Shown piece after piece: positions 1,255 through 18,202 of a stretch of DNA of 18,202 bases. Source of the DNA: a virus. Lineage: Duplodnaviria > Heunggongvirae > Uroviricota > Caudoviricetes. Location: the IMG/VR virus record IMGVR_UViG_2617270976_000013, positions 1-18,202 of that record; one strand, written 5' to 3'. Made by a program: the position numbers and the translations under genes. Each line of letters begins with the position of its first letter. Position 1 is the first letter of the stretch. A model generated the notes under the pieces. That model was not told where the DNA came from. It worked only from the letters and a program-made list of their open reading frames with translations, and made no database searches.

Positions 1255-1260
1255 ATAAAA

Positions 1261-1444: not shown

Positions 1445-1458
1445 TTTAAATCAATAAG

Positions 1459-3099: not shown

Positions 3100-3146
3100 T
3101 TTTACACCTCAGTTGGACGATGTTGAAATTTGCTGCTTTGAGGCCA

Positions 3147-3365
3147 TCACAGTCCCCATTGTTTGTTCTTAAGTTCGATCTCCTCCTGGCAACTTGCACA
3201 AGTCCGACAACCCTGAACAGCCAGGCGTCTTCGCTCATCTATCGGATCGCCACACTCACAACAATGAGTTGCGGATACAGTCTGGTAGTTCAGACGACGC
3301 ATTTTTATTGCTGTATTGCGCTGTAATTCTTCGATTTCTGATGCTGAATCAATGATGTCTGCCAT
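3147..3365 (-). CDS. TraR/DksA-family C4-type zinc-finger protein
   Basis: 72-aa product with CCECGDPIDERRRLAVQGCRTCASC, a four-cysteine zinc finger of TraR/DksA type; SD GGAAG upstream. Confidence 0.8.
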   Translation of the reverse strand: MADIIDSASEIEELQRNTAIKMRRLNYQTVSATHCCECGDPIDERRRLAVQGCRTCASCQEEIELKNKQWGL

Positions 3366-3414
3366 CTTCCATTAATCCCTGAATTGTTGGTTAATACGCT
3401 TGAGGATGAATGCG

Positions 3415-3441
3415 AACAATAAAAAAGGAGCCTGTAGCTCC
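3415..3441 (-). terminator. putative intrinsic terminator (minus strand)
   Basis: Hairpin ggagc-ctgta-gctcc (3427-3441); on the minus strand it is followed directly by a T6 run (plus-strand aaaaaa 3421-3426). Confidence 0.4.
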
Positions 3442-3463
3442 CTGATGATTTTGCTTTTCATGT

Positions 3464-3679
3464 TCACCGTTCCTTAAAGACGCCGTTTAACATGCCGATC
3501 ACCAGGCTTAAATGAGTCGGTGTGAATCCCATCAGCGTTACCGTTTCGCGGTGCTTCTTTAGTACGCTACGGCAAATGTCATTGACGTTTTTATCCGGAA
3601 ACTGCTGTCTGGCTTTTTTGATTTCATAATTAGCCTGACGGGCAATGCTGCGAAGGGCGTTATTATGTTCTATTGTCAT
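3464..3679 (-). CDS. hypothetical protein (71 aa), translationally coupled downstream of the 250-aa gene
   Basis: ATG at 3679 with GAGG about 5 nt upstream, 8 nt after the stop of the 250-aa ORF; product MTIEHNNALRSIARQANYEIKKARQ..., no family recognised. The ORF track extends it to 3817 but that overlaps the upstream gene. Confidence 0.5.
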   Translation of the reverse strand: MTIEHNNALRSIARQANYEIKKARQQFPDKNVNDICRSVLKKHRETVTLMGFTPTHLSLVIGMLNGVFKER

Positions 3680-3686
3680 ATTGGCC

Positions 3687-4439
3687 TCACACTTCGAATG
3701 CCAGTTGAGGGGTAAAGACGTCCCGTTCAGCGTTGTAATTAAGTGAACTGGCACTGTTGAATGATTCAATGCGTTCCACAAGAACTTGCGTACGGGTTTC
3801 TTTACTTGCGGGAGCATATGGCGAACCTACCCAGGATTTGTCGATGCCTATATTTCTTGCGACGTTCGTGCTGTCTGCAGACGAAAGCGGTACATGAGTA
3901 AAAATGTCTTTATTTAACATCCGTAACCCATGAATCTTGGTGATTGGGTAGCCGTACTGATCTACAACATGACGTATAAGATCGCGTAGTTTAGCCCGAC
4001 ACGCTCTCGGTCGTTTTGCATCGTATTCCCCCATCGAGCCGATGCAGACGCGGGGAAACTCATGGCACAGACGAATAAATCGCTCATCTGGTTCGTTCAT
4101 GTGCCACACCGGAGCACCAATAAATTTACCGTGAGGCCATGCCGCAATCAGGGCGTCATTCTCTTCACTGGTTCCGCCGATAACATCCGGGATAACCGCG
4201 AATGAGAAACGAGGGTGATTACCCCAGCGTTCAACAAATCTGTAATATTCATTCCAGTCTATGGCCTTGTTTTTTGTCCAGAATGTGAATGCACCATTAT
4301 CAAGAGCAAATGATTGGGTGACTTCGGAAGCCAGATCAATCTGAGCTGGATTAGCAAAACTGATGAATGCGTGTCTGCCTTTCCAGGCTTTCAACGCACA
4401 GGTATCGGGAGTTATTGGACCACCGTGAAAATGAATCAT
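3687..4439 (-). CDS. 250-aa protein with TGT-superfamily (tRNA-guanine transglycosylase-like) motifs; candidate DpdA-type 7-deazaguanine DNA transglycosylase
   Basis: Ordered motifs resembling bacterial Tgt: LDNGAF (46-51) vs TDSGGFQ, AVIPDVIGG (81-89), CIGSMG (132-137) vs VGGL, KDIFTHVP (177-184) vs IDMFDCVMP, TNVARN (191-196) vs TRNARN. No CxCxxC zinc site. The ORF itself is secure; the family call is from a by-eye alignment. Confidence 0.5.
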   Translation of the reverse strand: MIHFHGGPITPDTCALKAWKGRHAFISFANPAQIDLASEVTQSFALDNGAFTFWTKNKAIDWNEYYRFVERWGNHPRFSFAVIPDVIGGTSEENDALIAAWPHGKFIGAPVWHMNEPDERFIRLCHEFPRVCIGSMGEYDAKRPRACRAKLRDLIRHVVDQYGYPITKIHGLRMLNKDIFTHVPLSSADSTNVARNIGIDKSWVGSPYAPASKETRTQVLVERIESFNSASSLNYNAERDVFTPQLAFEV

Positions 4440-4594
4440 ACACTCTCCCGTTTATTATTTATCTCCTCAGCCAGCCGCTGGGCTTTCAGCGGATTTCGGA
4501 TAACAGAAAGGCCGGGAAATACCCAGCCTCGCTTTGTAACGGAGTAGACGAAAGTGATCGCGCCTACCCGGATATTATCGTGAGGATGCTTCAT
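4436..4594 (-). CDS. small protein (52 aa), lambda orf60a-like position immediately downstream of exo
   Basis: ATG overlaps the exo stop (ATGA) and its stop overlaps the ATG of the 250-aa gene (ATGA); product [52 protein letters not shown]. Below the ORF track length cutoff. Confidence 0.5.
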
Positions 4595-5271
4595 CGCCAT
4601 TGCTCCCCAAATACAAAACCAATTTCAGCCAGTGCCACGTCCATTTTTTCGATGAACTCCGGCACCATCTCGTCAAAATTCGCCATGTACTTTTCATTCC
4701 GCTCAATCACGACATAATGCAGTCCTTCACGCTTCATCCGCGGGTCATAGTTGGCAAAGTACCAGGCATCTTTTCGTGTCACCCACATGCTGTACTGCAC
4801 CTGGGCCATGTAAGCCGATTTTATGGCCTCGAAACCACCGAGCCGGAACTTCATGAAATCCCGGGAGGTAAACGGGCATTTCAGCTCAAGGCCATTGCCG
4901 TCACTGCATAAACCATCGGGAGAGCAGGCGGTGCGCATACTTTCGTCGCGATAGATGATCGGGGATTCAATAACATTTACGCCGGAAGTGAACTCAAACA
5001 CGGTTCTGGCGTCGTTCTCGTACTGTTTTCCCCAGGCCAGCGCTTTAGCGTTAACTTCCGGAGCCACACCGGTGCAAACCTCAGCCAGCAGGGTGTGGAA
5101 GTAGGACATTTTCATGTCAGGCCACTTCTTTCCTGATCGGGGCTTTGCTATCACGTTGTGAACTTCTGAAGCGGTGATGACGCCGAGCCGTAATTTGTGC
5201 CATGCATCATCCCCCTGTTCGACAGCTCTCACGTCGATCCCGGTACGCTGCAGGATAATGTCCGGTGTCAT
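4591..5271 (-). CDS. exo: lambda-type 5'-3' exonuclease (Red alpha)
   Basis: 226-aa product [40 protein letters not shown]... matches lambda Exo along its length; ATGA overlap with bet. Confidence 0.95.
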
Positions 5272-6053
5272 GCTGCCACCTTCTGCTCAGTGGCTTTCTG
5301 TTTCAGGAATCCAAGAGCTTTCACTGCTTCGGCCTGTGTCAGTTCTGACGATGCGCGAATGTCGCGGCGAAATATCTGGGAACAGAGCGGCAATAAGTCG
5401 TCATCCCATGTTTTATCCAGGGCGATCAGCAGAGTGTTAATCTCCTGCATGGTTTCATCGTTAACCGGAGTGATGTCGCGTTCTGGCTGACGTTCTGCAG
5501 TGTATGCTGTATTTTCGACAATGCGCTCGGCTTCATCCTTGTCATAGATACCAGCAAATCCGAAGGCCAGACGGGCACACTGAATCATGGCTTTATGCCG
5601 TAACATCCGTTTGGGATGCGACTGCCACGGCCCCGTGATTTCTCTGCCTTCGCGGGTTTTGAATGGTTCGCGGCGGCATTCATCCATCCATTCGGTAACG
5701 CAGATCGGATGATTACGGTCCTTGCGGTAAATCCGGCATGTACAGGATTCATTGTCCTGCTCAAAGTCCATGCCATCAAACTGCTGGTTTTCATTGATGA
5801 TGCGGGACCAGCCATCAACGCCCACCACCGGAACAATGCCGTTCTGCTTATCAGGGAAGGCGTAAATTTCTTTCGTCCACGGATTAAGGCCGTACTGGTT
5901 GGCGACGATCAACAATGCGATGAACTGCGCATCGCTGGCATCACCTTTAAATGCCGTCTGGCGAAGAGTGGTGATCAGTTCCTGTGGGTCGACAGAATCC
6001 ATGCCGACACGTTCAGCCAGCTTCCCTGCCAGCGTTGCGAGTGCTGTACTCAT
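5268..6053 (-). CDS. bet: lambda-type single-strand annealing protein (Red beta)
   Basis: 261-aa product [66 protein letters not shown]... matches lambda Bet. Confidence 0.95.
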
Positions 6054-6058
6054 CCGTT

Positions 6059-6355
6059 TTATACCTCTGAATCAATATCAAACTGGTGGTGAGCAATGGT
6101 TTCAACCATGTACCGGATGTGTTCTGCCATGCGCTCCTGAAACTCAACATCGTCATCAAACGCACGGGTAATGGCTTTTTTGCTGGCCCCGCAGCGTTGC
6201 AAATGATCGATACAGAGTGATTCAAACAGGTGCTGTGGAAGACCTTTTTCCATGTCGTCTGCCAGTTCTGCCTCTTTCTCTTCACGGGCGATCTGCTGGT
6301 AGTGACGTGCCCAGCTCTGAGCCTCAAGACGATCCTGAATGTAATAAGCGTTCAT
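6059..6355 (-). CDS. gam: RecBCD inhibitor Gam (short, GamS-like form)
   Basis: 98-aa product [47 protein letters not shown]... matches lambda Gam; SD AGGAG 8 nt upstream. The in-frame upstream extension has a stop and no ATG. Confidence 0.9.
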
Positions 6356-6431
6356 GGCTGAACTCCTGAAAATGGCTGTGAAAATATCGCCTGCGAAATG
6401 CCAGGCTGATTAGGAAAACAGGAAAGGGGGG

Positions 6432-6590
6432 TTAGTGATTCAGGCCGTTACCGCGTCCGTCGAGAAAAACTTCCACGAGCAAATCACGGGTATAAGTGCG
6501 CTCGATGCCGCGATGCAGATATAGCCGTCCGCGTAAATTAGCTGATGCAGTCCAGGTACCATCTTTGTGTTTGACCAGCATTCCTGGCAT
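6432..6590 (-). CDS. small ORF (52 aa) in the kil/cIII position, function unknown
   Basis: ATG at 6590 preceded by GAGGTG (5-nt spacer); product MPGMLVKHKDGTWTASANLRGRLYLHRGIERTYTRDLLVEVFLDGRGNGLNH; below the ORF track cutoff. Overlapping alternative ORFs exist in other frames. Confidence 0.35.
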   Translation of the reverse strand: MPGMLVKHKDGTWTASANLRGRLYLHRGIERTYTRDLLVEVFLDGRGNGLNH

Positions 6591-6899
6591 GACCGCACCT
6601 CAATTAACGGTCTGCATTCCGTAATGTTGATGAACCATAAAAACTCCTGCCCGTAAGCTGGGCTGCTGAACATATAGAGACTTCTGCGCGTATTCAGGCG
6701 GTGGATGGCCGCCGGTTGTCATAACTAAGCCGCCTCGTTGAAGCGACTGAGGTATGAAATGTTGAGTTAATTTCAGCTGGTCACACCGACGTTCACGCGT
6801 CCGTTTCACCCCTCGCACTCCCCGAAGCCTGCTGAAATTCAAACTGCGGATCTAAGCGGTCATCGCAACGGTGAATCAGGTAGTTGCCGTATCGTTGTG

Positions 6900-6990
6900 T
6901 TGTTGCGATGAACTTATTTAAAACTACAGTTGTTTTATCGTCAACAACAAAAGTTGTTTTATTGGTTGTTTTAGATATAACTGGTTGTAT
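6900..6990 (-). promoter_or_regulatory. putative leftward early promoter and operator array (pL/OL-like)
   Basis: Minus strand reads TTGACG, 17 nt, TTAAAT; overlapping repeats of TAAAACAAC/GTTGTTTT in direct and inverted orientation (plus strand agttgttttatcgtcaacaacaaaagttgttttattggttgtttta). Confidence 0.4.
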
Positions 6991-7085
6991 TTAGGATGGA
7001 TTTATTTTGTGACTTGAATCGCATAGCGATAACTGAAGCGAGGTTATGGTGGTTTTTTTAACGGTGTGTGTGATGAGGGGGGGGG

Positions 7086-7113
7086 CAAAAGAAAACCCGG
7101 CACGGTGACCGGG
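7086..7113 (-). terminator. putative intrinsic terminator downstream of the repressor gene (minus strand)
   Basis: GC stem cccgg (7096-7100) / ccggg (7109-7113) with an 8-nt loop; on the minus strand followed by TTTTCTTTT and then a C9 tract (plus-strand G9 at 7077-7085). Confidence 0.4.
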
Positions 7114-7234
7114 ATTCTTACGCCGTTAGGTAAAGATATTATTGCGGTGGCTTAATATTACTACCTAGAGCAAAGATAGGAATTAGTTCTTTACTGAATG
7201 AGCACAATGCCCAGTTGATAATTTTTAATTGGTA

Positions 7235-7924
7235 CTACCCATGCTTCCTATATGTCTGCGGCATGCTCCCAATAACCTTACCGAAGATGAACACCCGGTT
7301 CATCTCGTCTTTCTCGATCGGGTCCCACGGTGAGTAGCTTTTGTTATCAGAGATGACCAGCAGCTTATCCTTCATCATTTGCAGGCGCTTTACATGGGCT
7401 GTGTCGTCGTACAGAAACGCATAGATACCATCACCGTCGAAAGATTTAACTGTGATATCAACGAACAGCAGATCACCTGGTTCGATCGTTCCTGACATGC
7501 TGTCACCACGCACGTTAATGATGCGGATATTTTCCGCCTTCCTACCATCGAACATGTGACGAGCATCGTCAAACGAGTACTCAACCGAGCGTAGAACTTC
7601 TACAAACTCACGGTTGATGACTCCCGGCCCAGCACTGACTTCTATATCAAGAACGTCAATCTTGAAGTATTTGGAATGGCTGACAGTTGATTGTATTGGT
7701 TGCACTGTACTGTCTGACATATTTCCAACGCCAGAAGATAACCATTCTGCGCGCACACCCAAAGCGTTCGCGATCTCCACGATTTTAGTTGTTTGATTAG
7801 CTTTCCCTGTTTCGATTTTCTGAATAGCAGCCTGGCTAACCCCGACCAAATCCCCAAGCGCCTTTTGTGTAAGGCCTCGCGCTAATCTGGCTTCTTTAAG
7901 TCTTTCTGAGAGTGTTGTTTTCAT
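7235..7924 (-). CDS. cI: CI-like prophage repressor, HTH plus S24 (LexA-type) peptidase domain
   Basis: 229-aa product MKTTLSERLKEARLARGLTQKALGDLVGVSQAAIQKIETGK... with C-terminal GDSM and VKRL (Ser/Lys dyad context). Start chosen at ATG 7924 (not 7990) to leave a 105-bp operator region; no SD, consistent with a leaderless mRNA. Confidence 0.9.
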   Translation of the reverse strand: MKTTLSERLKEARLARGLTQKALGDLVGVSQAAIQKIETGKANQTTKIVEIANALGVRAEWLSSGVGNMSDSTVQPIQSTVSHSKYFKIDVLDIEVSAGPGVINREFVEVLRSVEYSFDDARHMFDGRKAENIRIINVRGDSMSGTIEPGDLLFVDITVKSFDGDGIYAFLYDDTAHVKRLQMMKDKLLVISDNKSYSPWDPIEKDEMNRVFIFGKVIGSMPQTYRKHG

Positions 7925-8028
7925 AGTCCAAATGTACAACCAAGGTTTTATTCCATCAAACGAAAATGGTTGTTGACTAAAAACAACCATGGTTTTAATC
8001 TTGATTCAAATTAACCACGGAGGTTGTT
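7925..8028. promoter_or_regulatory. divergent promoter/operator region (OR, pR, pRM-like)
   Basis: Three operator-like sites sharing AACCA/TGGTT half-sites (caaccaaggtttt, aaaatggttgttg, aaaacaaccatggtttt with perfect palindrome aaccatggtt). Rightward TTGACT (7973-7978) then TTTAAT; leftward TTGATG, 17 nt, TACATT ending about 7 nt before the repressor ATG. Confidence 0.55.
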
Positions 8029-8259
8029 ATGAACCCAGCTATCAAAACAGCGATCAATATCGTTGGTTCACAAAAGAAACTGGGCGCTGCTTGCGAAGTT
8101 TCACAGCAGGCCGTCTATAAGTGGCTTCACAACAAAGCAAAGGTATCCCCTGAACATGTCGGCAGCATTGTTACGGCTACTGGTGGAGTAGTGAAGGCAT
8201 ACCAGATTCGCCCGGATCTTCCGAAGTTGTTTCCACACACCGAAAAGAACGCAGCTTAA
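8029..8259 (+). CDS. cro: Cro-like HTH regulator (YdaS-like)
   Basis: 76-aa product MNPAIKTAINIVGSQKKLGAACEVSQQAVYKWLHNKAKVSPEH...; SD GGAGG 5 nt upstream; divergent from the repressor across the operator region. Confidence 0.85.
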   Translation: MNPAIKTAINIVGSQKKLGAACEVSQQAVYKWLHNKAKVSPEHVGSIVTATGGVVKAYQIRPDLPKLFPHTEKNAA

Positions 8260-8271
8260 ATTTCCATTTCA

Positions 8272-8284
8272 CGCTCTTTAACAA
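8272..8284 (+). promoter_or_regulatory. boxA-like element (nutR-equivalent position)
   Basis: CGCTCTTTAACAA, 12 nt after the cro stop, closely matching the boxA consensus (CGCTCTTTA / rrn TGCTCTTTAACAA); no convincing boxB hairpin follows. Confidence 0.5.
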
Positions 8285-8328
8285 TAAGCAATCAACTTAA
8301 CAGTCAATTCAAACTAAAGGAGTCAATT

Positions 8329-8868
8329 ATGCAACCACTTACATACCAACAGACTAGCGGATTTAGCCCGACTGCGGTGATAAATCGTTCTCAAACAAAA
8401 CAGGTGCCAGGCCACGAAAAGATCCGTGATGCCGTCCGCGCCTGGTCGGCTGTAGATAATCAGGATGTCGTTGCCACACTCATTGTGAATGAGTATCGGG
8501 AGCAGGGCGGCGGCACCATCGATTTCCCTGATGATGTCAGCCGTGCACGCCAGAAGCTGTTCCGCTTCCTCGATAACAAATTCGATTCTGAAAAATACCG
8601 AAATAACGTGCGTGAACTGACCCCGGCAATTCTGGCGGTACTACCGCTGGAATATCGCGGTTACCTGGTTGAGCAGGATAGCTTCATGGCTAGGTTGGCT
8701 GAAATGGAAAAGGAACTCAGTGAGGCAAAACAGGCTGTCATTCTCAACGCACCACGCCACCAGAAACTGAAGGAAATTAGTGAAGGTATTGTGTCGATGT
8801 TTCGTGTGGACCCAGATCTGGCTGGTCCATTGATGGCGATGGTTACTACCATGCTGGGGGCGATATGA
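8329..8868 (+). CDS. CII-position regulator, YdaT-family
   Basis: 179-aa product; segment ARQKLFRFLDNKFDSEKYRNNVRELTPAILAVLP resembles Rac YdaT ARNTQKIFRWVEKDTPDAVEKMQALLPAIEKSMP; strong SD AAGGAG; follows cro as cII does in lambda. Confidence 0.7.
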   Translation: MQPLTYQQTSGFSPTAVINRSQTKQVPGHEKIRDAVRAWSAVDNQDVVATLIVNEYREQGGGTIDFPDDVSRARQKLFRFLDNKFDSEKYRNNVRELTPAILAVLPLEYRGYLVEQDSFMARLAEMEKELSEAKQAVILNAPRHQKLKEISEGIVSMFRVDPDLAGPLMAMVTTMLGAI

Positions 8869-8954
8869 CAGGTTCAGAAATGGCGAAAGCCGGTCTGCTG
8901 GAACAGAACCGACTTTCAGGTGCAAACCGTAACACACTCATTGCGGGAGGAATT

Positions 8955-9560
8955 ATGGCAAACACTGCTGAGATATTCAATTTTCCAGTGCCGGATGTGG
9001 CACAAAAGGAGCCGCGCGTGGCAGATCTCGATGATGGTTATACGCGCATTGCAAATGAGTTGCTGGAAGCTGTGATGCTGGCCGGATTAACACAGCACCA
9101 GCTTCTGGTCTTCCTGGCTGTCATGCGCAAAACATATGGCTTTAATAAAAAACTGGATTGGGTGAGCAACGAGCAACTTTCCGAGTTGACCGGGATATTG
9201 CCGCACAAGTGTTCTGCTGCAAAAAGTGTTCTGGTAAAGCGTGGGATTTTTATTCAGAGCGGGCGGAATATCGGCATTAATAATGTGGTCAGTGAATGGT
9301 CAACATTACCCGAATCAGGTAAGAAAAATAAAGTTTACCTGAAAGAGGTAAATTTACCTGAATCAGGTAAGAAAAGTTTACCCAAATCAGGTAAAGACGT
9401 TTACCCGAATCAGGTAAACACAAAAGACAAACTAACAAAAGACAATATAAAACCTTTTTCGTCCGAGAATTTTGGCGAATCCTCTGACCAGCCAGAAAAC
9501 GATCTTCCTGTGGTGAAACCGGATGCTGCAATTCAGAGCGGCAGCAAGTGGGGGATCTGA
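8955..9560 (+). CDS. O: replication initiator, lambda O-like (N-terminal origin-binding domain)
   Basis: 201-aa product; VADLDDGYTRIANELLEA...LAVMRKTYGFNKK matches lambda O (VADLDDGYARLSNMLLEA...LRKTYGWNK); SD GGGAGG upstream of ATG 8955; contains iterons. Shorter than lambda O. Confidence 0.85.
   Translation: MANTAEIFNFPVPDVAQKEPRVADLDDGYTRIANELLEAVMLAGLTQHQLLVFLAVMRKTYGFNKKLDWVSNEQLSELTGILPHKCSAAKSVLVKRGIFIQSGRNIGINNVVSEWSTLPESGKKNKVYLKEVNLPESGKKSLPKSGKDVYPNQVNTKDKLTKDNIKPFSSENFGESSDQPENDLPVVKPDAAIQSGSKWGI
9306..9418. repeat. origin iterons (ori) inside the O gene
   Basis: Four to five copies of about 18 bp TTTACCYRAATCAGGTAA (starts near 9306, 9333 degenerate, 9353, 9377, 9400), each internally palindromic (ACCTGA-a-TCAGGT), followed by an AT-rich stretch (9418-9462). 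Confidence 0.7.
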
Positions 9561-9609
9561 ATGGAGCGTTAATGATGCAGCGGATATCATCAGGTGCCTA
9601 GTACGGGTG

Positions 9610-9861
9610 ATGGAGATCATCAAGCAGGATAGCCAGCAGAAAGAAGGTAATCAGGCATTAATGTTGAAACAGTACTTTGTTAATCTGCTAATAATGGAAC
9701 TGTACGAGGAAGTTCATAACGGTGATGCGGCTGATTCTGTTTTTAAAAGTACGGAACCTACACAAGTACTTGATAACTTATGGAGCAAATGGCAGGAGGC
9801 TATAGCTATTTTTGATATTTGGAATTACCCAGTTGCGACTGAGGAAGACTTGGCAGACTAA
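9610..9861 (+). CDS. hypothetical protein (84 aa) in the position normally occupied by a helicase loader
   Basis: ORF from ATG 9610 (MEIIKQDSQQKEGNQALMLKQYFVNLLIMELYEE...); no similarity to lambda P or DnaC recognised; start uncertain. Confidence 0.4.
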   Translation: MEIIKQDSQQKEGNQALMLKQYFVNLLIMELYEEVHNGDAADSVFKSTEPTQVLDNLWSKWQEAIAIFDIWNYPVATEEDLAD

Positions 9862-10055
9862 TTTTCAGCACATTTGATTTCCAATAATCAACCAGCCATA
9901 ATCATGCCATTGGAGCCTGAACAACTCCGGTGACTTCTGCGCTAAACGGGGACGTTTATGCGCACATACAATCCAACCTATCTTCTCCATTCACAGATGC
10001 AGAAATGCACCTGCGTTTTTTTGCATCCAACGTTTGACCTCTGCGGAGGTGAAGC

Positions 10056-10511
10056 GTGAACCTCCCACAAGACGGTATCAAATTGCATCGCGGTAACTTC
10101 ACCGCTATCGGTCAGCAGATCCAGTCTTATCTGGAGGACGGCAAATGCTTTCGCATGGTGCTTAAACCGTGGCGCGAAAGACGCAGTCTTTCCCAGAATG
10201 CACTCAGCCACATGTGGTACAGCGAAATCAGCGAGTACCTCATCAGCAGGGGGAAAACGTTCGCTACTGCAGTATGGGTAAAAGATGCACTCAAACACAC
10301 ATACCTCGGTTATGAAACCAAGGACTTGGTTGATGTCGTAACCGGCGAAATCACTACTATCCAGTCGTTACGCCATACCTCCGATCTTGATACCGGAGAG
10401 ATGTATGTCTTCCTGTGTAAGGTTGAAGCCTGGGCGATGAATATTGGCTGCCACCTGACTATTCCGCAGAGCTGCGAGTTCCAGCTGCTGCGCGACAAGC
10501 AGGAGGCGTAA
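10056..10511 (+). CDS. ninB: NinB/Orf-family recombination protein (YbcN-like)
   Basis: 151-aa product with [17 protein letters not shown] motif (lambda NinB RSLDQNRKLWACLGDVS); GTG start with GGAGG 6 nt upstream. Confidence 0.85.
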
Positions 10512-10681
10512 TGGCTACACCGCTTATTCGGGTCATGAACGGACACATCTACAGAGTACCAAATCGTCGTAAGCGTAAACCGGAGCTGAAGCCTTCCGAA
10601 ATACCAACACTGCTCGGATATACCGCCAGCCTGGTTGATAAAAAATGGTTGCGACTGGCAGCAAGGAGGAATCATGGCTGA
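10511..10681 (+). CDS. ninE: NinE-like small protein
   Basis: 56-aa product [56 protein letters not shown]; SD AGGAGG; TAATG overlap with ninB; below the ORF track cutoff. Confidence 0.65.
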   Translation: MATPLIRVMNGHIYRVPNRRKRKPELKPSEIPTLLGYTASLVDKKWLRLAARRNHG

Positions 10682-10964
10682 TTTGAGAAAAGCAGCGCGT
10701 AGTCGGGAATGCCAGGTAAGAATCCCTGGCGTATGTAATGGCAACCCTGAAACGTCTGTACTGGCACATATCCGGCTGACTGGATTGTGCGGCACCGGTA
10801 CCAAACCGCCAGACCTGATTGCCACCATTGCATGTTCTGCCTGCCACGACGAAATCGACCGCCGCACACATTTTGTCGATGCTGCATATGCAAAAGAATG
10901 CGCGCTGGAAGGTATGGCGAGAACACAGGTTATCTGGCTGAAAGAGGGGGTTATTAAGGCGTGA
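10674..10964 (+). CDS. YbcO-like cysteine-rich protein (DUF1364-type)
   Basis: 96-aa product [34 protein letters not shown]...[11 protein letters not shown] with conserved Cys/His; SD AGGAGGA; same order (ninB-like, ninE, ybcO, rusA) as in the DLP12 prophage. Confidence 0.75.
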
Positions 10965-11323
10965 ATACCTACAGCATCACATTACCCTGGCCTCCGAGCA
11001 ATAATCGCTATTACCGCCATAATCGCGGGCGCACGCACGTCAGCGCAGAGGGGCAGGCATACCGCGATAACGTCGCCCGAATCATTAAAAACGCAATGCT
11101 GGATATCGGCCTGGCTATGCCTGTGAAAATCCGCATTGAGTGCCACATGCCGGATCGCCGTCGCCGTGACCTGGATAATCTGCAAAAAGCCGCTTTTGAC
11201 GCACTCACTAAAGCAGGTTTCTGGCTGGATGATGCTCAGGTCGTTGATTACCGTGTTGTGAAGATGCCTGTTACCAAAGGTGGGAGGCTGGAACTGACCA
11301 TCACCGAAATGGGGAATGAATGA
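10961..11323 (+). CDS. rusA: Holliday junction resolvase RusA
   Basis: 120-aa product [74 protein letters not shown]... closely matches E. coli RusA; GTGA overlap with the upstream gene. Confidence 0.9.
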
Positions 11324-11460
11324 TGTTTGAGTTTTATATGGCAGAACTTCTTCGCCACCGCTGGGGGCATCTGCGCTTATATCGTTTCCCCGGTTCTGTT
11401 TTGACCGATTACCGAATACTGAAGAATTACGCCAAAACCCTGACAGGAGCAGGAGTATGA
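11320..11460 (+). CDS. ylcG: YlcG-like small protein
   Basis: 46-aa product [46 protein letters not shown]; ATGA overlap with the rusA stop. Confidence 0.65.
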
Positions 11461-11545
11461 AGCCAGAGATAACAATCAACTAATACTGTTTTATTGATTT
11501 TTGCTTGTAATTGGCGTTCTGGTCTGATTTTTGTGGAGTAAGTTG

Positions 11546-11929
11546 ATGCGTGATATTCAGATGGTTCTTGAGCGTTGGGGAGCGTGGGCGGCTAATAATC
11601 ATGAAGATGTGACCTGGTCGTCCATTGCCGCCGGTTTTAAGGGATTAATTCCTTCAAAAGTAAAATCTCGCCCGCAATGTTGTGACGATGACGCGATAAT
11701 CATTTGCGGGTGCATGGCCCGTCTGAAAAAGAACAACAGCGATTTGCACGATTTATTAGTAGATTATTATGTAGTCGGTATGACATTCATGTCACTGGCA
11801 GGTAAGCATTGCTGCTCTGATGGTTATATCGGGAAAAGGTTACAGAAGGCTGAGGGTATAATTGAAGGGATGTTAATGGCATTAGATATCCGGTTAGAGA
11901 TGGATATCGTTGTTAATAACTCTAATTAA
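11546..11929 (+). CDS. late-gene antitermination protein Q (QuuD-like)
   Basis: 127-aa product [60 protein letters not shown]... with the Cys cluster of Q-family antiterminators; SD GGAG upstream. Confidence 0.9.
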
Positions 11930-11941
11930 TATGCCAATTGT

Positions 11942-11970
11942 TTACTAAAAATTATTAAAAATGGGGCGTT
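11942..11970 (-). terminator. putative intrinsic terminator for the porin gene (minus strand)
   Basis: Stem ggggcg / cgcccc with loop ttgaga (11953-11970); on the minus strand followed by ATTTTTAATAAT. Confidence 0.45.
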
Positions 11971-12117
11971 GAGACGCCCCCAAAAATAAAGGGTAATATA
12001 TAACAGAAGGTTTATATAGTTAGAAGCAAGTTTGTGCTCATAAAGGAAGTGGTTTGAGGGAGCCATTTATATGTGGGGGAGGAAAAGCCCCCCGCAACAT
12101 ATCTTTTAGTAATCAAA

Positions 12118-13200
12118 TTAGAACTGGTAAACCATACCTACAGCAACGATATCATCGGTAGCAACGCCAGATGCTTTCGTGAAATCGCTCTTATCAATCA
12201 GGTTGATTTTGTAATCAACAAAAGTGGACATATTTTTGTTGAAGTAATAGGTTGCACCTACATCAATATATTCAACCAGGTCCTGATCACCCCACGCACC
12301 CAAGTCTTTTCCTTTAGATTGCAGGTAAGCAACGGACGGACGCAGACCGAAGTCGAACTGATATTGTGCAACTACTTCGAAGTTTTGTGCTTTGTTGGCA
12401 ATATGGTTATTACCAAAAACAGTCATGTTCTGGGTTTCAGAATAGGTGGTAGCCAGATAGATGTTGTTCGCATCATATTTCAGACCAGCTGCCCATACTT
12501 CAGCATTTTGACCAGATGCATTCAGGCTGTTGTTACCGTAGATAACCTGATTATTAGTGCGGTCAGATTTAGCATAGGTTGCACCTACACCGAATCCTTC
12601 ATACTCATAAGTAGTGGAGAAACCGAAACCATCACCATTAGCTTCAGTTACGTCAGTGCGGTCATTTTTACCCTGATACTGAGCAGCAAAGTTCAGACCA
12701 TCAACCAGACCAAAGAAGTCATTGTTACGATAAGTTGCAACACCTGTGGTGCGACCAGTCATGAATACATCTGTTTGGGTCCAGGTATCGCCACCGAATT
12801 CTGGCAGAACGTCGGTCCATGCACCAATATCGTATGCTACACCGTAGTTACGGCCATAATCGATGGAGCCGTAGTCACCGAATTTCAGGCCAGCGAAGGC
12901 AAGACGGGTTTTATCTTTGGAGGAACCTTGAGATTCAGCGCGGTTGCCTTTGAATTCATATTCCCACTGACCGAAACCAGTCAGTTGATCGTTGATTTGG
13001 GTTTCACCTTTGAAGCCAAGACGGGCATAAGTAGTATCACCATCATCTGCATCATTAGAGGAGAAGTAGTGCTTAGCATTAACTTTCCCGTACAGATCCA
13101 GCTTGTTACTGTCTTTATTATAAATTTCAGCTGCCTGAGCAGACATCGCCATCAGTACTGATGCAGTTACAGCAGAAATTGCCACTGTTAATTTTTTCAT
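12118..13200 (-). CDS. OmpC/NmpC-family outer-membrane porin (prophage moron)
   Basis: 360-aa product with signal peptide [23 protein letters not shown], Gly/Tyr/Asn-rich beta-barrel composition and C-terminal F (..VGMVYQF); lies between Q and the lysis genes in opposite orientation, as nmpC does in DLP12. Confidence 0.9.
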
Positions 13201-13626
13201 CGTGAGCCCTTTTTTTGAACTATTATTAAAAAATGATGTCACTGCGCGATAAATATTCATCTAATCAATGTGATTATTTCAAGATGTAAGTTTTGGTTTC
13301 TCATTTGATTTGTGAAGTAGATCTCTATTTTTATCTGAACTTTTTCTATCGAATCCTATTCATGGCTCTTGGCTGAATAAAAATAAATCTATTAGCCAAT
13401 TTATATTAATGGCTGTTATTTATAAGTGCTCTATAATTTGAAGGTTCAATTTAAATCGGCTAAAAATAACGCTGGAAATTATTTGTTGGTTATTTGTTGA
13501 GATTTGCTTATGTATTTGTAGTGGTGTTTTCAATACTCGGTAGCATTCTCGCAAATATCATTTAGTGGTTTACGTACGTAAAAAATTGGTTATGCTGTTA
13601 AGAGTGGTTACTTCGTCACACAGCTT

Positions 13627-13659
13627 AAACCCGCCGTCGAGCGGGTTTTTCCATTTTTT
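13627..13659 (+). terminator. intrinsic terminator upstream of the lysis cassette
   Basis: Stem aaacccgc / gcgggttt with loop cgtcga, followed by tttttccatttttt on the plus strand, about 110 nt before the holin start. Confidence 0.5.
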
Positions 13660-13771
13660 GAGTCTCGATATTAGCTGATAACCCAATACCTGAGTTATTC
13701 ACTGACTCCGAGTCTGTTACGTTTCGTAGTATTCCCTCAATTTACACCCGCTTTGTCTGCGAGGTGGGGTT

Positions 13772-13987
13772 ATGAAATCCATGGATAAGTTAACAACGGG
13801 TGTCGCCTATGGCACCTCAGCAGGTAGTGCCGGGTACTGGTTTTTACAGCTGCTAGATAAAGTCACGCCCTCACAGTGGGCGGCAATTGGAGTGCTGGGT
13901 AGCCTGGTATTTGGCCTGCTGACGTACCTGACAAACCTTTATTTCAAGATTAAAGAAGATAAGCGCAAGGCTGCGAGAGGTGAATAA
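13772..13987 (+). CDS. S: class II holin (phage 21 S-type pinholin) with dual-start motif
   Basis: 71-aa product [71 protein letters not shown]; two TM helices; Met1 and Met4 (MKSM); SD GAGGTGGGG. Confidence 0.9.
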
Positions 13988-14484
13988 TGCCTCCATCATT
14001 ACGAAAAGCCGTTGCTGCTGCTATTGGTGGCGGAGCAATTGCTATAGCATCAGTGTTAATTACTGGCCCAAGTGGTAACGATGGTCTGGAAGGTGTCAGC
14101 TACATACCATACAAAGATATTGTTGGTGTATGGACTGTATGTCACGGGCATACAGGAAAAGACATCATGCTCGGTAAAACGTATACCAAAGCAGAATGCA
14201 AAGCCCTCCTGAATAAAGACCTTGCCACGGTCGCCAGACAAATTAACCCGTACATAAAAGTTGATATACCGGAAACAACGCGCGGCGCTCTTTACTCGTT
14301 CGTTTACAACGTGGGCGCTGGCAATTTCAGAACATCGACGCTTCTTCGCAAAATAAACCAGGGCGATATCAAAGGCGCATGTGATCAGCTACGTCGCTGG
14401 ACATATGCTGGCGGTAAGCAATGGAAAGGTCTCATGACTCGTCGTGAGATTGAGCGTGAAATCTGTTTGTGGGGTCAGCAATGA
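13987..14484 (+). CDS. R: SAR endolysin (T4-lysozyme-like muramidase with signal-anchor-release domain)
   Basis: 165-aa product; N-terminal Gly/Ala-rich weakly hydrophobic segment [18 protein letters not shown] followed by a Glu, Asp, Thr catalytic spacing ([15 protein letters not shown]); TAATG overlap with the holin. Confidence 0.9.
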
Positions 14485-14941
14485 ACAGAGTAACCGCGAT
14501 TATCTCCGCTCTGGTTATCTGCATCATCGTCTGCCTGTCATGGGCTGTTAATCATTACCGTGATAACGCCATTACCTACAAAGCCCAGCGCGACAAAAAT
14601 GCCAGAGAACTGAAGCTGGCGAACGCGGCAATTACTGACATGCAGATGCGCCAGCGTGATGTTGCTGCACTGGATGAAAAATACACGAAGGAGTTAGCTA
14701 ATGCGAAAGCTGAAAATGATGCTCTGCGTGATGATGTTGCCGCTGGTCGTCGTCGGTTGCACATCAAAGCAGTCTGTCAGTCAGTGCGTGAAGCCACCAC
14801 CGCCTCCGGCGTGGATAATGCAGCCTCACCCGACTGGCAGACACCGCTGAACGGGATTATTTCACCCTCAGAGAGAGGCTGATCACTATGCAAAAACAAC
14901 TGGAAGGAACCCAGAAGTATATTAATGAGCAGTGCAGATAG
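14481..14941 (+). pseudogene. Rz: Rz (i-spanin) disrupted by a -1 frameshift
   Basis: N-terminal about 113 aa ([45 protein letters not shown]...) is lambda Rz-like, but the frame runs into ...[19 protein letters not shown] (the Rz1 C-terminus) and stops at 14882; the lambda Rz C-terminus [31 protein letters not shown] is in another frame ending at 14941. Confidence 0.7.
14701..14850 (+). pseudogene. Rz1: Rz1 (o-spanin lipoprotein), C-terminally altered by the same frameshift
   Basis: Embedded [52 protein letters not shown] (49 aa) with lipobox VVVGC; lambda Rz1 continues ...[21 protein letters not shown] (60 aa), sequence that here sits in the Rz frame. Confidence 0.6.
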
Positions 14942-14972
14942 AGCTGCCCATATCGATGGGCAACTCATGCAA

Positions 14973-15266
14973 TTATTGTGAGCAATACACACGCGCTTCC
15001 AGCGGAGTATAAATGCCTAAAGTAATAAAACCGAGCAATCCATTTACGAATGTTTGCTGGGTTTCTGTTTTAACAACATTTTCTGCGCCGCCACAAATTT
15101 TGGCTGCATCAACAGTTTTCTCCTGTCCAATTCCCGAAACGAAGAAATGATGGGTGATGGTTTCCTTTGGTGTTACTGCTGTCGGTTTGTTTCCAACAGT
15201 AAACGTCTGTTGAGCACATCCTGTAATAAGCATTGCCAGAGCGGCAGAAAACAACATTTTTTTCAT
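14973..15266 (-). CDS. bor: Bor lipoprotein (serum-resistance moron)
   Basis: 97-aa product MKKMLFSAALAMLITGCAQQTFTVGNKPTAVTPKETITHHFFVSGIGQEKTVDAAKICGGAENVVKTETQQTFVNGLLGFITLGIYTPLEARVYCSQ with lipobox LITGC; matches lambda Bor. Confidence 0.9.
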   Translation of the reverse strand: MKKMLFSAALAMLITGCAQQTFTVGNKPTAVTPKETITHHFFVSGIGQEKTVDAAKICGGAENVVKTETQQTFVNGLLGFITLGIYTPLEARVYCSQ

Positions 15267-15446
15267 CTTATTATCCTGCATTGTTAAAAACGGCAGAATC
15301 CTATGTGACAACAATTAAACGATAGTTAAATGGATTGATGAAAATTAAAACTATATAGGTGTACGGTCAGACTATTGGAGGTAGTCAGGATTTGAATGTC
15401 AGTCTGTTGTCGGCATTCTGGCAATGCAATTTGGATAAAGCGGGGA

Positions 15447-15569
15447 TTAAAAAGATAGAGGCGAGCCGGTCAGGTAGAAATGAATCAGGCTCAAAGTGAA
15501 GCGGAAAAGGTCTGTGGCACAAGCTGATGCAGCCATAATTACAGCCTGATGATTTGTGGAATGAAACAT
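15447..15569 (-). CDS. candidate small hydrophobic ORF (40 aa), unverified
   Basis: ATG at 15569 preceded by GGAGG with a 6-nt spacer; product MFHSTNHQAVIMAASACATDLFRFTLSLIHFYLTGSPLSF; no homolog recognised. Confidence 0.25.
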   Translation of the reverse strand: MFHSTNHQAVIMAASACATDLFRFTLSLIHFYLTGSPLSF

Positions 15570-15649
15570 GTTGAACCTCCTTAATTGATGTTATTCGAGT
15601 GATGAAGGCATTCTGTCCTTCTATAGTGTCCAGTAAATCAAACAGGAAA

Positions 15650-15705
15650 CTTGTCCAACGTGTTGGACAAGCCTCTCCATTAGTGAGTTGTATTGATCAC
15701 AACTC
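15650..15705. repeat. pair of inverted repeats of unknown function
   Basis: cttgtccaac-gt-gttggacaag (15650-15671, perfect 10-bp arms) and gagttgt-attgatc-acaactc (15685-15705, 7-bp arms); lie between bor and the tail-module remnant with no flanking T-run. Confidence 0.6.
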
Positions 15706-15808
15706 TACAAAGAATTCATTACTGGGTAGATGAAAATAGTTTCACGATGAATGGAGGAGGCTATGTCGGTGGCTTCTTCATTGGAGTATCCGCGAATGCC
15801 TGCAATGG

Positions 15809-15964
15809 ATGATTGATGACGGCGTGGTGTCCCGTATTGATCTGGATATCCGCCGCACCGGGATTAATGAACTGGGTAACAGTATCACTCTCTGGCGTCG
15901 TGACGGACCGGTAATGATTTCTTTTGATGATCTGTGGAGTGCGATAACGCATGGCGGACAGTGA
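15809..15964 (+). pseudogene. truncated ORF overlapping the J start, possibly the 3' remnant of an upstream baseplate gene
   Basis: Open frame from the stop at 15737 to 15964 encoding ...MIDDGVVSRIDLDIRRTGINELGNSITLWRRDGPVMISFDDLWSAITHGGQ; overlaps J by 14 nt as upstream baseplate genes often do; no SD or N-terminal domain. Confidence 0.3.
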
Positions 15965-16871
15965 ATTTCAGCGCCCGACGCTGGCAGAAAATATCAGTAT
16001 GCTCCGTAACGATTTATTCGCCAGGCTGGACGTCAGCGACACGCTCCGGCGCATGGATGAAGACGTGCGGGCAAAGGTGTATGCGGCGGCGCTGCATACG
16101 GTTTACGGTTACATCGATTATCTGGCAATGAACATGCTGCCTGACCTGTGCGATGAGTCCTGGCTGGCGCGACATGCTGCGATGAAACGGTGTCCGCGCA
16201 AGGGGGCCACGGCTGCCAGCGGGTATATGCGCTGGGAAGGTGTCAGCGATGGCCTGAAGGTGACTGCCGGGAGTGTTATTCAGCGCGATGACCTGGTTCA
16301 GTACACGGCAACTGCCGATGCAACCAGCTCCGGTGGTGTCCTGCGCGTGCCGATCGCCTGCTCAAGTGCAGGCGCGGTCGGTAACGCTGACGACGGTACG
16401 TCATTAATCCTGGTCACGCCGGTGAATGGTCTGCCGTCTTCCGGCGTGGCAGACACTCTGACAGGTGGATTTGATACTGAAGAGCTGGAAACGTGGCGCG
16501 CCCGCGTCATTGAGCGGTATTACTGGACGCCTCAGGGCGGGGCTGACGGGGACTATGTTGTCTGGGCTAAAGAAGTGCCAGGCATTACCCGTGCATGGAC
16601 ATACCGCCACTGGATGGGAACGGGGACTGTCGGTGTGATGATTGCCAGCAGTGACCTGATTAATCCCATTCCGGAAGAATCAACGGAAACGGCGGCAAGA
16701 CAACACATTGAGCCACTGGCCCCGGTGGCAGGCTCTGATTTGTATGTATTCAGGCCGGTGGCGCATAAAGTGGATTTTCATATCCGCGTGACGCCGGACA
16801 CACTGGAAATACGGGCTGCCATCACCGCCGAGTTGCGTTCGTTCCTGCTGCGTGATGGTTATCCGGAGTAA
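15951..16871 (+). CDS. baseplate assembly protein J-like (P2 gpJ family)
   Basis: 306-aa product MADSEFQRPTLAENISMLRNDLFARLDVSDTLRRMDEDVRAKVYAAALHTVYGYIDYLAMNMLPDL... recognised as the P2 J / e14 JayE baseplate family. Confidence 0.8.
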   Translation: MADSEFQRPTLAENISMLRNDLFARLDVSDTLRRMDEDVRAKVYAAALHTVYGYIDYLAMNMLPDLCDESWLARHAAMKRCPRKGATAASGYMRWEGVSDGLKVTAGSVIQRDDLVQYTATADATSSGGVLRVPIACSSAGAVGNADDGTSLILVTPVNGLPSSGVADTLTGGFDTEELETWRARVIERYYWTPQGGADGDYVVWAKEVPGITRAWTYRHWMGTGTVGVMIASSDLINPIPEESTETAARQHIEPLAPVAGSDLYVFRPVAHKVDFHIRVTPDTLEIRAAITAELRSFLLRDGYPE

Positions 16872-17095
16872 TCCATGCATCGTATAGATACGAAAGACAG
16901 CTATTAATTAATCAGGCCAACGAATACATGAACAGTAAACAATGGCCCGGTAAAACCGCTATTGGTCGTCTGAAAGGCGAGGAACTGGCGCAATATAATT
17001 CGTGGCTGGATTATCTGGACGCACTGGAGCTGGTTGATACCTCCAGTGTGCCAGATATTGAATGGCCTACGCCTCCGGCAGTTCAGGCCAGATGA
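16872..17095 (+). pseudogene. tail fibre assembly protein remnant (C-terminal part only)
   Basis: Frame open from the J stop encodes ...ERQLLINQANEYMNSKQWPGKTAIGRLKGEELAQYNSWLDYLDALELVDTSSVPDIEWPTPPAVQAR, the conserved C-terminal region of Tfa chaperones, with no N-terminal domain; converges on and overlaps the complete tfa on the other strand. Confidence 0.5.
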
Positions 17096-17669
17096 CATCA
17101 GGCGCGGTGCTGGTATCAGTTGCCGTCACCGCGTCAATGTAATCCAGCACAGCGTTAAGGCTGGTTGTTTCTGCCTGCGTCAGTTTACGTCCGGCCTGCA
17201 ATTTCAGCTGAATCAGACTGATTGAAGCCATTGCAGTATCAATCAGTGACTGGCGCTGTGCTTCTGCTGCATCTACTGCGGCGCTATGCTGTGCTTCGGT
17301 ATCCGTCACCCATTTCTCACCATCCCATTTATCGTATGGCGTTAACGGGGCGATAGTGGTTGTATTATCAGGGTAATCACCCGGAGCTGTGATTTCTTTT
17401 GACTCTCCCGTTTTGGTGCTATAGACGATTTCACCGCGATGGTCTGGCACATATTCCCATGAGTTAAAATTTGCAGAACGACAGATAGCATAACCCGCCT
17501 TATGTGTGCCAGGGGCATCTAAACAGGAATATGCAGGAATACCGACACCAATGGCAAGATATTCAGTTGATGCTGAAATATATTCCTGCGTCTCACTATC
17601 ATAGTTATAAACGGTAATATCCCCCGACTTTGTAGCAATAAGCTCACTATTTAATATTGCTTTATCCAT
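17067..17669 (-). CDS. tfa: tail fibre assembly protein (Tfa chaperone)
   Basis: 200-aa product ending ...QSLIDTAMASISLIQLKLQAGRKLTQAETTSLNAVLDYIDAVTATDTSTAPDVIWPELPEA, the characteristic Tfa C-terminus; start overlaps the stop of the upstream tail-fibre ORF (TAATG). Confidence 0.85.
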   Translation of the reverse strand: MDKAILNSELIATKSGDITVYNYDSETQEYISASTEYLAIGVGIPAYSCLDAPGTHKAGYAICRSANFNSWEYVPDHRGEIVYSTKTGESKEITAPGDYPDNTTTIAPLTPYDKWDGEKWVTDTEAQHSAAVDAAEAQRQSLIDTAMASISLIQLKLQAGRKLTQAETTSLNAVLDYIDAVTATDTSTAPDVIWPELPEA

Positions 17670-18202
17670 TATGCTGCTCTCACGATATAGTTAAATGCAA
17701 TGTTTCGAGGGCGATTCTCTGATGCTGTTGGTACAACCCTGGATGCATCAAAACTGAATCCTGTGTAAGGGGTATTTTTTGTTTCATATGTGCCTAGGTT
17801 ATTATAGATATTTCGCGTAGCTTGAGATGCTAAGGCAAAAGCACCAGTACCAGTCTGTAACCTGAAAGTTGCTGTATCAATGGTGCCTTTAACTTCATTT
17901 ATAAATCCTGTTATATTCCGAATGGTATCTCCCTGTGACGAAAGCAAGCTACGGTTAGTATCAATCCCTCTTCCATCATCCCAGCCACGAATAAACTCAC
18001 CGCGTAAATCAGGCAATTTATTTGTCGGGTAAACCTTTGCCAGTTCCGGGTATTCTTCAGCAGAAAAAGCCGCCCCGTTGCATTTCAGCCAGCCTGTTGG
18101 CGGAGTGGCGGAAGGCCACGGAACAGGCACGCCAACGGGTAATGCCGAACCTTCTCCCAAACCAACGTTTATGAAAATGCAGAAATAACGAGCAAATGGC
18201 AT
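17669..18202 (-). CDS. tail fibre protein, C-terminal (variable) segment with tail-collar domain
   Basis: 177-aa product containing LPDLRGEFIRGWDDGRGIDTNRSL (tail-collar signature); only 177 aa, so it cannot be a whole fibre; the ATG sits at the last bases of the window. Confidence 0.75.
   Translation of the reverse strand: MPFARYFCIFINVGLGEGSALPVGVPVPWPSATPPTGWLKCNGAAFSAEEYPELAKVYPTNKLPDLRGEFIRGWDDGRGIDTNRSLLSSQGDTIRNITGFINEVKGTIDTATFRLQTGTGAFALASQATRNIYNNLGTYETKNTPYTGFSFDASRVVPTASENRPRNIAFNYIVRAA
18152..18177. other. candidate DNA-invertase crossover site (hix/gix/pix-like)
   Basis: TTCTCCCAAACCAACGTTTATGAAAA: 26 bp, imperfect dyad around an AAACC-AA-CGTTT core; resembles hixL (TTCTTGAAAACCAAGGTTTTTGATAA) recalled from memory; lies within the 5' end of the tail-fibre segment. 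Confidence 0.5.

Follow-up and report, generated by a model that had tools for sequence, protein, structure and literature searches.

SP6-group phages (SP6, K1E, and K1-5) and T7-group phages (BA14, with its promoter phi4.3, and 285P) carry promoters for the RNA polymerases that they encode. Exclusion and abortive-infection morons are accessory genes of prophages and include lambda RexAB, P22 SieA and SieB, P2 Old, Tin, and Fun, and DicB; in the lysogen these genes are driven by promoters of the host type, and what they sense are phage proteins or phage processes. In P2 Ogr and satellite P4 delta, as in helper-induced islands, one element has its genes transcribed only if a second phage provides a factor, the partners in P2/P4 being a helper and a satellite and the outcome being propagation of the satellite. 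Until now, sensing of an invader through its transcription specificity has been a principle of engineered suicide circuits that a phage triggers. The locus described here belongs to an 18,202-nt stretch of caudoviral DNA (IMG/VR record IMGVR_UViG_2617270976_000013, positions 1 to 18,202), which is referred to as the window. A short region of it, 15267–15808, holds on its minus strand a cassette in which two putative podophage promoters, one of the T7 class and one of the SP6 class, stand in tandem ahead of a 40-codon small open reading frame (ORF).

The window shares with the SP6- and T7-group promoters 21-nt identities, the G at +1, and a 5′ stem-loop. Unlike the phages of both groups, however, it contains each promoter once, within a temperate lambdoid prophage that lacks such a polymerase gene, and promoters of two polymerase families lie here in tandem, antisense to the late operon of the prophage itself. 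As with the exclusion morons, an accessory gene is found in a prophage; the window ORF is located in a spacer beside a known moron, bor, has been kept in a decaying prophage, and may plausibly act against phages, as those genes do. The trigger proposed for the cassette, in contrast to that of RexAB-, Sie-, and Old-type genes, would be the polymerase specificity of the invader. As in the P2/P4 pair, transcription would depend on a factor from another phage, but this factor would be the complete polymerase of a virulent podophage, and the cargo would be one tiny peptide.

The downstream promoter is the only site with three mismatches or fewer to the SP6 consensus (15638–15616, three mismatches), a score that none of 200 shuffled sequences matched. 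A promoter scan of viral contigs with the SP6-class pattern, in which positions −12 to −10 were left free, separated two classes, namely contigs of ~44 kb with several same-strand copies, which correspond to K1E, K1-5, AAPEc6, and relatives, and prophage loci with one copy. The window sequence, ATTTACTGGACACTATA followed by GAAG, is identical over 21 of 21 positions to the commonest lytic variant (41 copies) on the multi-copy ~44-kb contigs. It combines the conserved match from −17 to +4 and the G at +1 with repeated same-strand copies in polymerase-encoding genomes, as expected of the SP6 group. The SP6 genome contains about 12 promoters (PMC11880802), and an SP6-like polymerase transcribes in vitro from a sequence identical to positions −17 to −1 of the window site (PMC13029058, Table 2). 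Moreover, hairpin, spacer, promoter, leader, Shine–Dalgarno (SD) sequence, and ATG are colinear between the window and the intergenic region of K1E genes 17 and 18. The leader that follows the SP6-class promoter is 52 nt long and is predicted to begin with a small hairpin, whose longer equivalents occupy the same place in loci L106 and L109; transcripts of lytic phages also begin with a stem-loop.

Of the 14 positions of the T7 core (−16 to −3), 13 are matched by the upstream promoter, a score equalled in two of 200 shuffles. Over the 21 nt ATCAATACAACTCACTAATGG, it coincides exactly with a promoter that occurs in multiple copies (seven) on lytic contigs of 38–40 kb, which represent 285P, BA14, BSP161, and relatives, and the homologous site in the BA14 GenBank record is annotated as promoter phi4.3. 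The consensus of this class, including CTCACTAAT followed by GG, is present in the window, while the canonical T7 consensus TAATACGACTCACTATAGGGAGA is not, since positions −2/−1 and those from +3 onward differ; the site thus belongs to the BA14/285P class and not to T7 proper. The identity of both promoters, as judged by sequence, can be regarded as highly probable. A preliminary description of this DNA had missed the two of them because the minus strand was not read.

That description had also pointed to an SD-led 40-codon ORF on the minus strand, and this now looks like a real small gene. Its frame, length, ATG, and SD are intact in all 52 haplotypes into which 96 related loci could be grouped. 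Within codons 23–40, eight of the nine variable sites are third positions (nonsynonymous diversity, pN = 0; synonymous diversity, pS = 0.14–0.21), and nine of ten substitution events in codons 21–41 are synonymous (P = 4e-5, or 2e-3 when only transitions are counted). The synonymous variable sites of the ORF are second codon positions of the overlapping tail of lysC; in the part of lysC that is not overlapped, variable sites are distributed as 15, 8, and 15 across the three codon positions, and the other plus-strand frame over the small ORF is closed. The minus-strand ORF is thus under coding constraint, with its C-terminal half under purifying selection, and the leader and SD in front of it form the least variable part of the spacer. 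AlphaFold2 predicts one helix for residues 3–34 (mean predicted local distance difference test score 83), which is uninformative on function. An exhaustive profile search with the ORF family recovered the family itself and one diverged homologue of 38 residues. This homologue is again antisense and belongs to a phage without HNH, where the lysis module lies on one side of it and the packaging module on the other, with the palindrome 1 hairpin ahead of it. A scan of genome representatives for the SD motif gave one chance match, in a Saprospiraceae genome.

Type I toxin–antitoxin toxins (Hok, TisB, Ldr, and Ibs) resemble the product of the window ORF in being hydrophobic helical peptides of ~40 residues with a structured leader, a strong SD, and an antisense overlap. 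Nevertheless, no sigma-70 promoter, dedicated antisense RNA, or Rfam family was found for the cassette, and the window peptide is less hydrophobic than typical type I toxins, below the grade of a membrane helix, and shows no sequence relationship with them in Pfam and NCBIfam searches. An assignment to type I toxin–antitoxin systems was therefore rejected on account of the missing host-type promoter on either strand, the missing Rfam family, and the low hydropathy.

Three cargo families and at least four promoter classes share one order, namely T7-class promoter, hairpin, SP6-class promoter, SD, and an ORF of ~38 codons, and the unit is always antisense and located between the lysis and packaging modules. 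Homologues of the small ORF occupy the same position and orientation in unrelated temperate phages, and two Klebsiella phages have the same arrangement as the window cassette. The Klebsiella-type cassettes carry TTAATAGTGGCGAGTATAGA, which is multi-copy on ~45-kb contigs identified as Klebsiella podophages, and their upstream promoters, AATTAGGTAGCACTATAG and AATTAGGGCCCACTATAG, which vary within the specificity region, have exact copies on lytic contigs of ~40–41 kb (66 and 10 copies, respectively). The promoter classes of the cassettes match podophages of the same host genus. The cargo peptides, of 37–40 residues, fall into at least three families, of which B and C reach membrane-helix hydropathy. 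Two loci deserve separate mention. L180 (reverse complement 2440–3420) contains two hairpin–promoter units and two further small ORFs, one overlapping the 3′ end of Rz; its upstream element was rejected as a strict T7 promoter, with more than three mismatches to the 23-nt consensus, and is T7-like only (core ACGACTCACTATAGG). L155 (reverse-complement position 6906) has the same T7-like promoter, hairpin, and SP6-like promoter ahead of a different downstream sequence.

The cassette is not peculiar to a damaged prophage. The interval 15267–15788 aligns uninterruptedly and at 99–100% identity to 566 complete E. coli genomes, in which it sits between iss/bor and an HNH endonuclease gene in intact SfIV/SfV-type thrW prophages, whose gene order past HNH is P27-family small terminase, large terminase, portal, HK97 protease, capsid, and Mu-like sheath, tube, and baseplate. 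It is thus the native spacer from the lysis/bor module to the HNH–terminase module, and the block is found in 750 of 5426 complete E. coli genomes (~14%). The preliminary description had taken the region for a scar marking where the head and tail-shaft genes should be. Those genes are indeed missing here, but the interval is continuous with the bor/iss-to-HNH interval of complete prophages, an outcome that the description itself had named as contradicting it, and the joint is a single point, 15787/15788, at its far right. The absence of a long ORF from 15267–15808 stands, none longer than ~46 aa crossing the region. The spacer lies in a hot zone of mosaicism. Lambda, 434, and 21 match query positions 1–115/119 only, and SfIV aligns from query position 114 onward. 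Stretches homologous to its lysC remnant are annotated as LysC or as 'Rz1, missing N-terminus'. RefSeq has no annotation beneath the cassette in nearly all genomes, and a few phage records label the small ORF 'hypothetical protein' or, apparently wrongly, 'DUF4347'. In L009 (E. coli MS 69-1, ~1590–1925), an insertion of ~300 nt with a 64-aa hypothetical gene separates the cassette from HNH. The features are compiled in Table 1.

Table 1. Positions of the cassette, its neighbours, and the deletion joint in the window.
Feature	Position	Strand	Remarks
bor/iss lipoprotein gene, 97 aa	14973..15266	-	Pfam Lambda_Bor E = 6.4e-31; RefSeq homologue name Iss; same orientation as cassette
Lambda-type sequence upstream of bor	15267..15381		Ends at old mosaic joint ~15381/15382
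3′ remnant (last 118 nt) of SfIV-type o-spanin gene (lysC/Rz1-like)	15382..15499	+	Stop TGA 15497-15499
40-codon small ORF, MFHSTNHQAVIMAASACATDLFRFTLSLIHFYLTGSPLSF	15447..15569	-	Overlaps lysC remnant antisense by 53 nt
Shine–Dalgarno sequence AAGGAGG	15576..15582	-	6-nt spacer to ATG; invariant in alignments
Predicted 5′-terminal leader hairpin, GAAGG-8 nt-CCTTC	15604..15621	-	Begins at +1 of SP6-class promoter; in minimum-free-energy fold
SP6-group (K1E/K1-5 class) phage RNA-polymerase promoter, ATTTACTGGACACTATA followed by GAAGGA	15616..15638	-	Predicted +1 = 15621
Palindrome 1 (I1) stem-loop	15646..15675	-	Core arms 15650-15659 / 15662-15671 (10 nt, perfect); 13 pairs when extended
T7-group (BA14/285P class) phage RNA-polymerase promoter, CAATACAACTCACTAAT followed by GGAGAG	15673..15695	-	Predicted +1 = 15678
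Palindrome 2 (I6)	15685..15705		Arms 15685-15691 / 15699-15705 (7 nt each); minus-strand 3′ arm ACAACTC = T7-class promoter -13 to -7
Weak hairpin directly upstream of lost HNH gene's ribosome-binding site	15754..15779	+	-15 kcal/mol; 86.6% of cells paired; zero pairs changed on both sides
Orphan ribosome-binding site GGAG of deleted HNH endonuclease gene	15783..15786	+	Intact prophages read on as TTGGAGTACATATG, last three bases = HNH start
Deletion joint, 2-nt microhomology TA	15787..15788		Left homology ends 15788, right begins 15787; three-way alignment
Last 176 nt of Mu-like GP46 baseplate gene, first ~250 nt gone	15789..15964	+	RefSeq homologue 'phage GP46 family protein'; weak Pfam GP46, E = 0.034
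Baseplate J/gp47 gene, 3′ truncated, 306 aa vs 352 aa intact	15951..16871	+	Pfam Baseplate_J E = 4.8e-51; intact gene 1059 nt

No sigma-70-like promoter was detected on either strand of 15150–15950. Because no host promoter is recognizable, the ORF would be silent in the lysogen, and it could be transcribed only when a superinfecting T7-like or SP6-like podophage brings its own RNA polymerase into the cell. Podophages of both kinds shut off the host polymerase. In that case, transcripts of the upstream promoter would have the palindrome 1 hairpin as their 5′ stem-loop, and the helical peptide would act on the infected cell or on the invader, leading to abortive infection or exclusion. Infection-dependent transcription and a defensive role are inferred because the host promoter is missing, the promoter classes are matched to the host, and the ORF is selected. 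From these sequence features, transcription that depends on a podophage seems slightly favoured, whereas the defensive role of the peptide remains more doubtful; the proposal as a whole, namely that a superinfecting podophage turns on the otherwise silent ORF with its polymerase and that this probably serves defence, appears evenly poised between right and wrong.

A tentative generalization would be a modular 'polymerase trap' in temperate phages of Enterobacteriaceae, in which a gene for a hydrophobic peptide (~38–40 codons) without a host promoter is placed behind tandem T7-like and SP6-like promoters copied from podophages of the same host, so that the polymerase of the invader, after host shut-off, turns on a suicide or exclusion peptide, and in which positions −12 to −8 diversify with the local podophage polymerases. 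If the cassette works as proposed, it would provide a natural case of a resident element that detects an invader through the invader's own transcription specificity, and a sensing mode of immunity that survives the shut-off of the host polymerase. It would also explain why a conserved, unannotated block is present in ~14% of complete E. coli genomes, make an arms race readable at promoter positions −12 to −8, and offer compact, orthogonal, and naturally tuned promoter–peptide modules, and it could affect therapy with K1-specific and Klebsiella podophages. Even without any function, exact podophage promoters in lambdoid prophages are a record of gene flow between virulent phages and temperate ones, and the cassette would still matter where T7- or SP6-type polymerases are expressed in carrier strains. 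No description of podophage promoters in prophages was found in the literature searched, which does not prove that none exists.

Several observations weigh against this proposal. The upstream promoter departs from the canonical T7 sequence, and its activity is assumed by analogy with BA14/285P. Both promoters are in the form found in lytic phages in only 40 of the 96 prophage loci, and the one or two substitutions that the others have, as in CTCGCTAAT or GACAGTATAGG, could reflect decay. A weak host promoter may be present, with one candidate of 8/12 matches seen by eye. Transcripts from the two promoters would also enter bor and the lysis genes, the latter in antisense, and, therefore, the peptide may not be the effector. 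Its N-terminal half (codons 2–20) lacks purifying selection, with pN (0.30) exceeding pS (0.10), and the peptide, described earlier as hydrophobic, is only moderately so, with a grand average of hydropathy of 0.67 and a best 17-residue window of 1.37. The cargo peptides have no match in Pfam, PHROGs, NCBIfam, or PADLOC, none of seven reaching E <= 1 in PADLOC-DB v2.

The sequence shared with podophages could also result from recombination between co-infecting phages. According to this alternative, promoters and hairpin are lytic podophage DNA picked up in a co-infection, or the reverse transfer took place, and they hitch-hike in a permissive spacer, the ORF having arisen by chance or having nothing to do with them. 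Homology of the regulatory unit to the K1E gene 17–18 and 285P phi4.3 regions is plain, and the downstream lytic gene, gp18, proved unrelated to the small ORF when the latter was compared as a possible relative. The promoter substitutions in many prophage copies and the mosaic nature of the spacer also fit such debris. However, debris would not be expected to recur as an ordered architecture across several promoter classes (at least four) and three families of cargo, always antisense between lysis and packaging, nor to have promoter classes that fit podophages of the same host genus, a coding signature in the ORF, and a leader and SD that vary less than the rest of the spacer. Recombination debris, thus, is considered unlikely.

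The proposal of a podophage-triggered peptide has also to be set against the possibility that the prophage benefits, and not the host population, by using the borrowed polymerase to over-express Bor/Iss or to make antisense RNA across the lysis genes, or that the benefit goes to the lytic phage. Transcripts of both promoters would enter bor in sense in prophages of the bor type and would cross into lysC, Rz, and the endolysin gene in antisense in those of the SfIV type; most host terminators do not stop T7-type polymerases. Nevertheless, conservation and selection fall on the small ORF and its strong SD, and the SfIV-type and Klebsiella-type cassettes have no bor, which makes such a benefit improbable as the reason for the cassette.

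Equally hard to sustain is a role of the palindromes as plus-strand stem-loops of the prophage late transcript, involved in its processing or stability or in translation control of HNH and terminase, with the minus-strand ORF unexpressed. Both palindromes, with arms of 10 and 7 nt, are present as first described. A perfect inverted repeat with arms of at least 10 nt and a loop of at most 10 nt, such as palindrome 1, occurs in 0.75% of 2000 dinucleotide-preserving shuffles of 15267–15808, while a 7-nt repeat like palindrome 2 is within chance (0.44 per region on average in the shuffles). Palindrome 1 covaries: three stem pairs are altered on both sides across the haplotypes, 94.7% of cells are paired, and none of 500 shuffles reaches the score. 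These paired changes mirror variants of lytic phages, and templated mutation in palindromes could produce the same pattern. Its hairpin is present in L106, L108, and L180, and also precedes the gene-18 promoter, in the gene 17–18 gap, of K1E, K1-5, and SP6-size contigs, the prophage variants included. In palindrome 2, one pair is altered on both sides and many G.U-type intermediates occur.

Judged from gene order, the Q-dependent late operon reads along the plus strand, and the intermediates of palindrome 2 are G.U pairs on this strand. At 15576–15584, the complement of the SD reads ACCTCCTTA on the plus strand, which is also the sequence of the 3′ tail of 16S rRNA, and the minimum-free-energy fold of the plus strand has it paired to the orphan ribosome-binding site of HNH; on this modelled fold, it could be a cis anti-SD element in late mRNA. 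However, the plus-strand fold is unremarkable (z = −1.7), in contrast to that of the minus strand (z = −3.3), and the hairpin of palindrome 1 and the ORF travel together in phages without HNH. Moreover, the varying base of palindrome 2 is promoter position −11, A or G, both of which are found in lytic phages, so that the promoter accounts for the variation, and the 21-nt identities to podophage promoters would be left unexplained by late-mRNA elements. In the Rfam search of the region, nothing was found except a chance microRNA match inside bor.

The remark that neither palindrome is followed by a T-run holds for the plus strand only, because a T-rich tract, TTTCCTGTTTGATTT, comes after palindrome 1 on the minus strand, where the palindrome was scored as terminator-like. 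A role as an intrinsic terminator appears doubtful, the T-rich tail or U-tract not being retained in SfIV, L106, and K1E, and a further inverted repeat (15484–15491/15543–15550) was discarded as unconserved in SfIV. The preliminary interpretation of the palindromes as protein-binding or recombination sites, tied to the loss of the structural genes, could draw on the statistically unusual palindrome 1 and on the missing plus-strand T-runs, but it is scarcely credible, since both palindromes lie 82–138 nt from the joint and are unchanged in intact prophages, the joint itself uses a 2-nt microhomology, the stem of palindrome 1 changes its sequence yet keeps pairing, unlike an operator, and both have homologues in lytic phages, the hairpin being shared with K1E, K1-5, and SP6 and palindrome 2 overlapping the T7-class core.

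The window as a whole is a decayed SfIV/SfV-type prophage at thrW-proA. Its left end shows proA, then thrW (tRNA-Thr CGT, 1369–1444), then the integrase gene, and thrW is the integration site of phages SfI, SfII, SfIV, and SfV (PMC3851460). At the right of the spacer, both flanks are colinear with an intact relative and the homology switches abruptly at a short microhomology, which shows that one illegitimate deletion fused 15788 to the 3′ end of GP46 via TA. The left homology ends with TTGGAGTA, where intact prophages continue CATATG, whose final three bases are the HNH start codon, and thus the joint lies 3 nt ahead of this lost codon. About 15.5 kb are missing, from HNH through the first ~250 nt (60%) of GP46, including cos, which is located downstream of HNH. 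The joint was not encountered in any of the complete E. coli genomes, viral contigs, or metagenome contigs searched. As in the defective prophages e14 and DLP12, structural genes were lost by illegitimate recombination at a short microhomology, and decay is also visible nearby, in a spanin frameshift and in the truncated baseplate J gene; the deletion itself is ordinary prophage decay.

The 5′ edge of HNH is a recurrent joint in the sequences compared, although clustering beyond coincidence could not be demonstrated. The HNH start is a common mosaic boundary, many E. coli prophages sharing HNH from the ATG onward with unrelated DNA upstream, and a site-specific cause of the breakpoint is, therefore, unproven. 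An independent deletion of head genes in L098 (pattern at 10132, plus strand) breaks 1 nt from the window breakpoint (window 15788–15792) and continues, past the same spacer, with tail-assembly chaperone and tape-measure genes. At first sight, LR-46 (L008) had its left breakpoint in common with the window, as a deletion hot spot at the HNH edge would require, but it retains the 5′ end of HNH and was rejected.

Other parts of the window show further accessory genes and rearrangements. At 12073–13260, two long ORFs overlap on opposite strands; homologues in phage and genome records are annotated as porin (OmpC/OmpD/NmpC-type), a second lambdoid moron upstream of the lysis genes, and the plus-strand ORF has no Pfam match. 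At 16871–17095, baseplate J gives way to the C-terminal 55 aa of a tail-fibre assembly protein and then to an oppositely oriented tfa and tail-fibre end; ymfQ and the 5′ part of the tail-fibre gene seem to have been removed by a second deletion or rearrangement. Within the Rz/Rz1 overlap, a 1-nt deletion relative to L098 and L003 is located at ~14825–14826; the frameshifted Rz enters the Rz1 frame (Pfam Phage_lysis profile positions 1–90, then the Rz1 tail), Rz1 is shortened, and both spanins are probably inactive.

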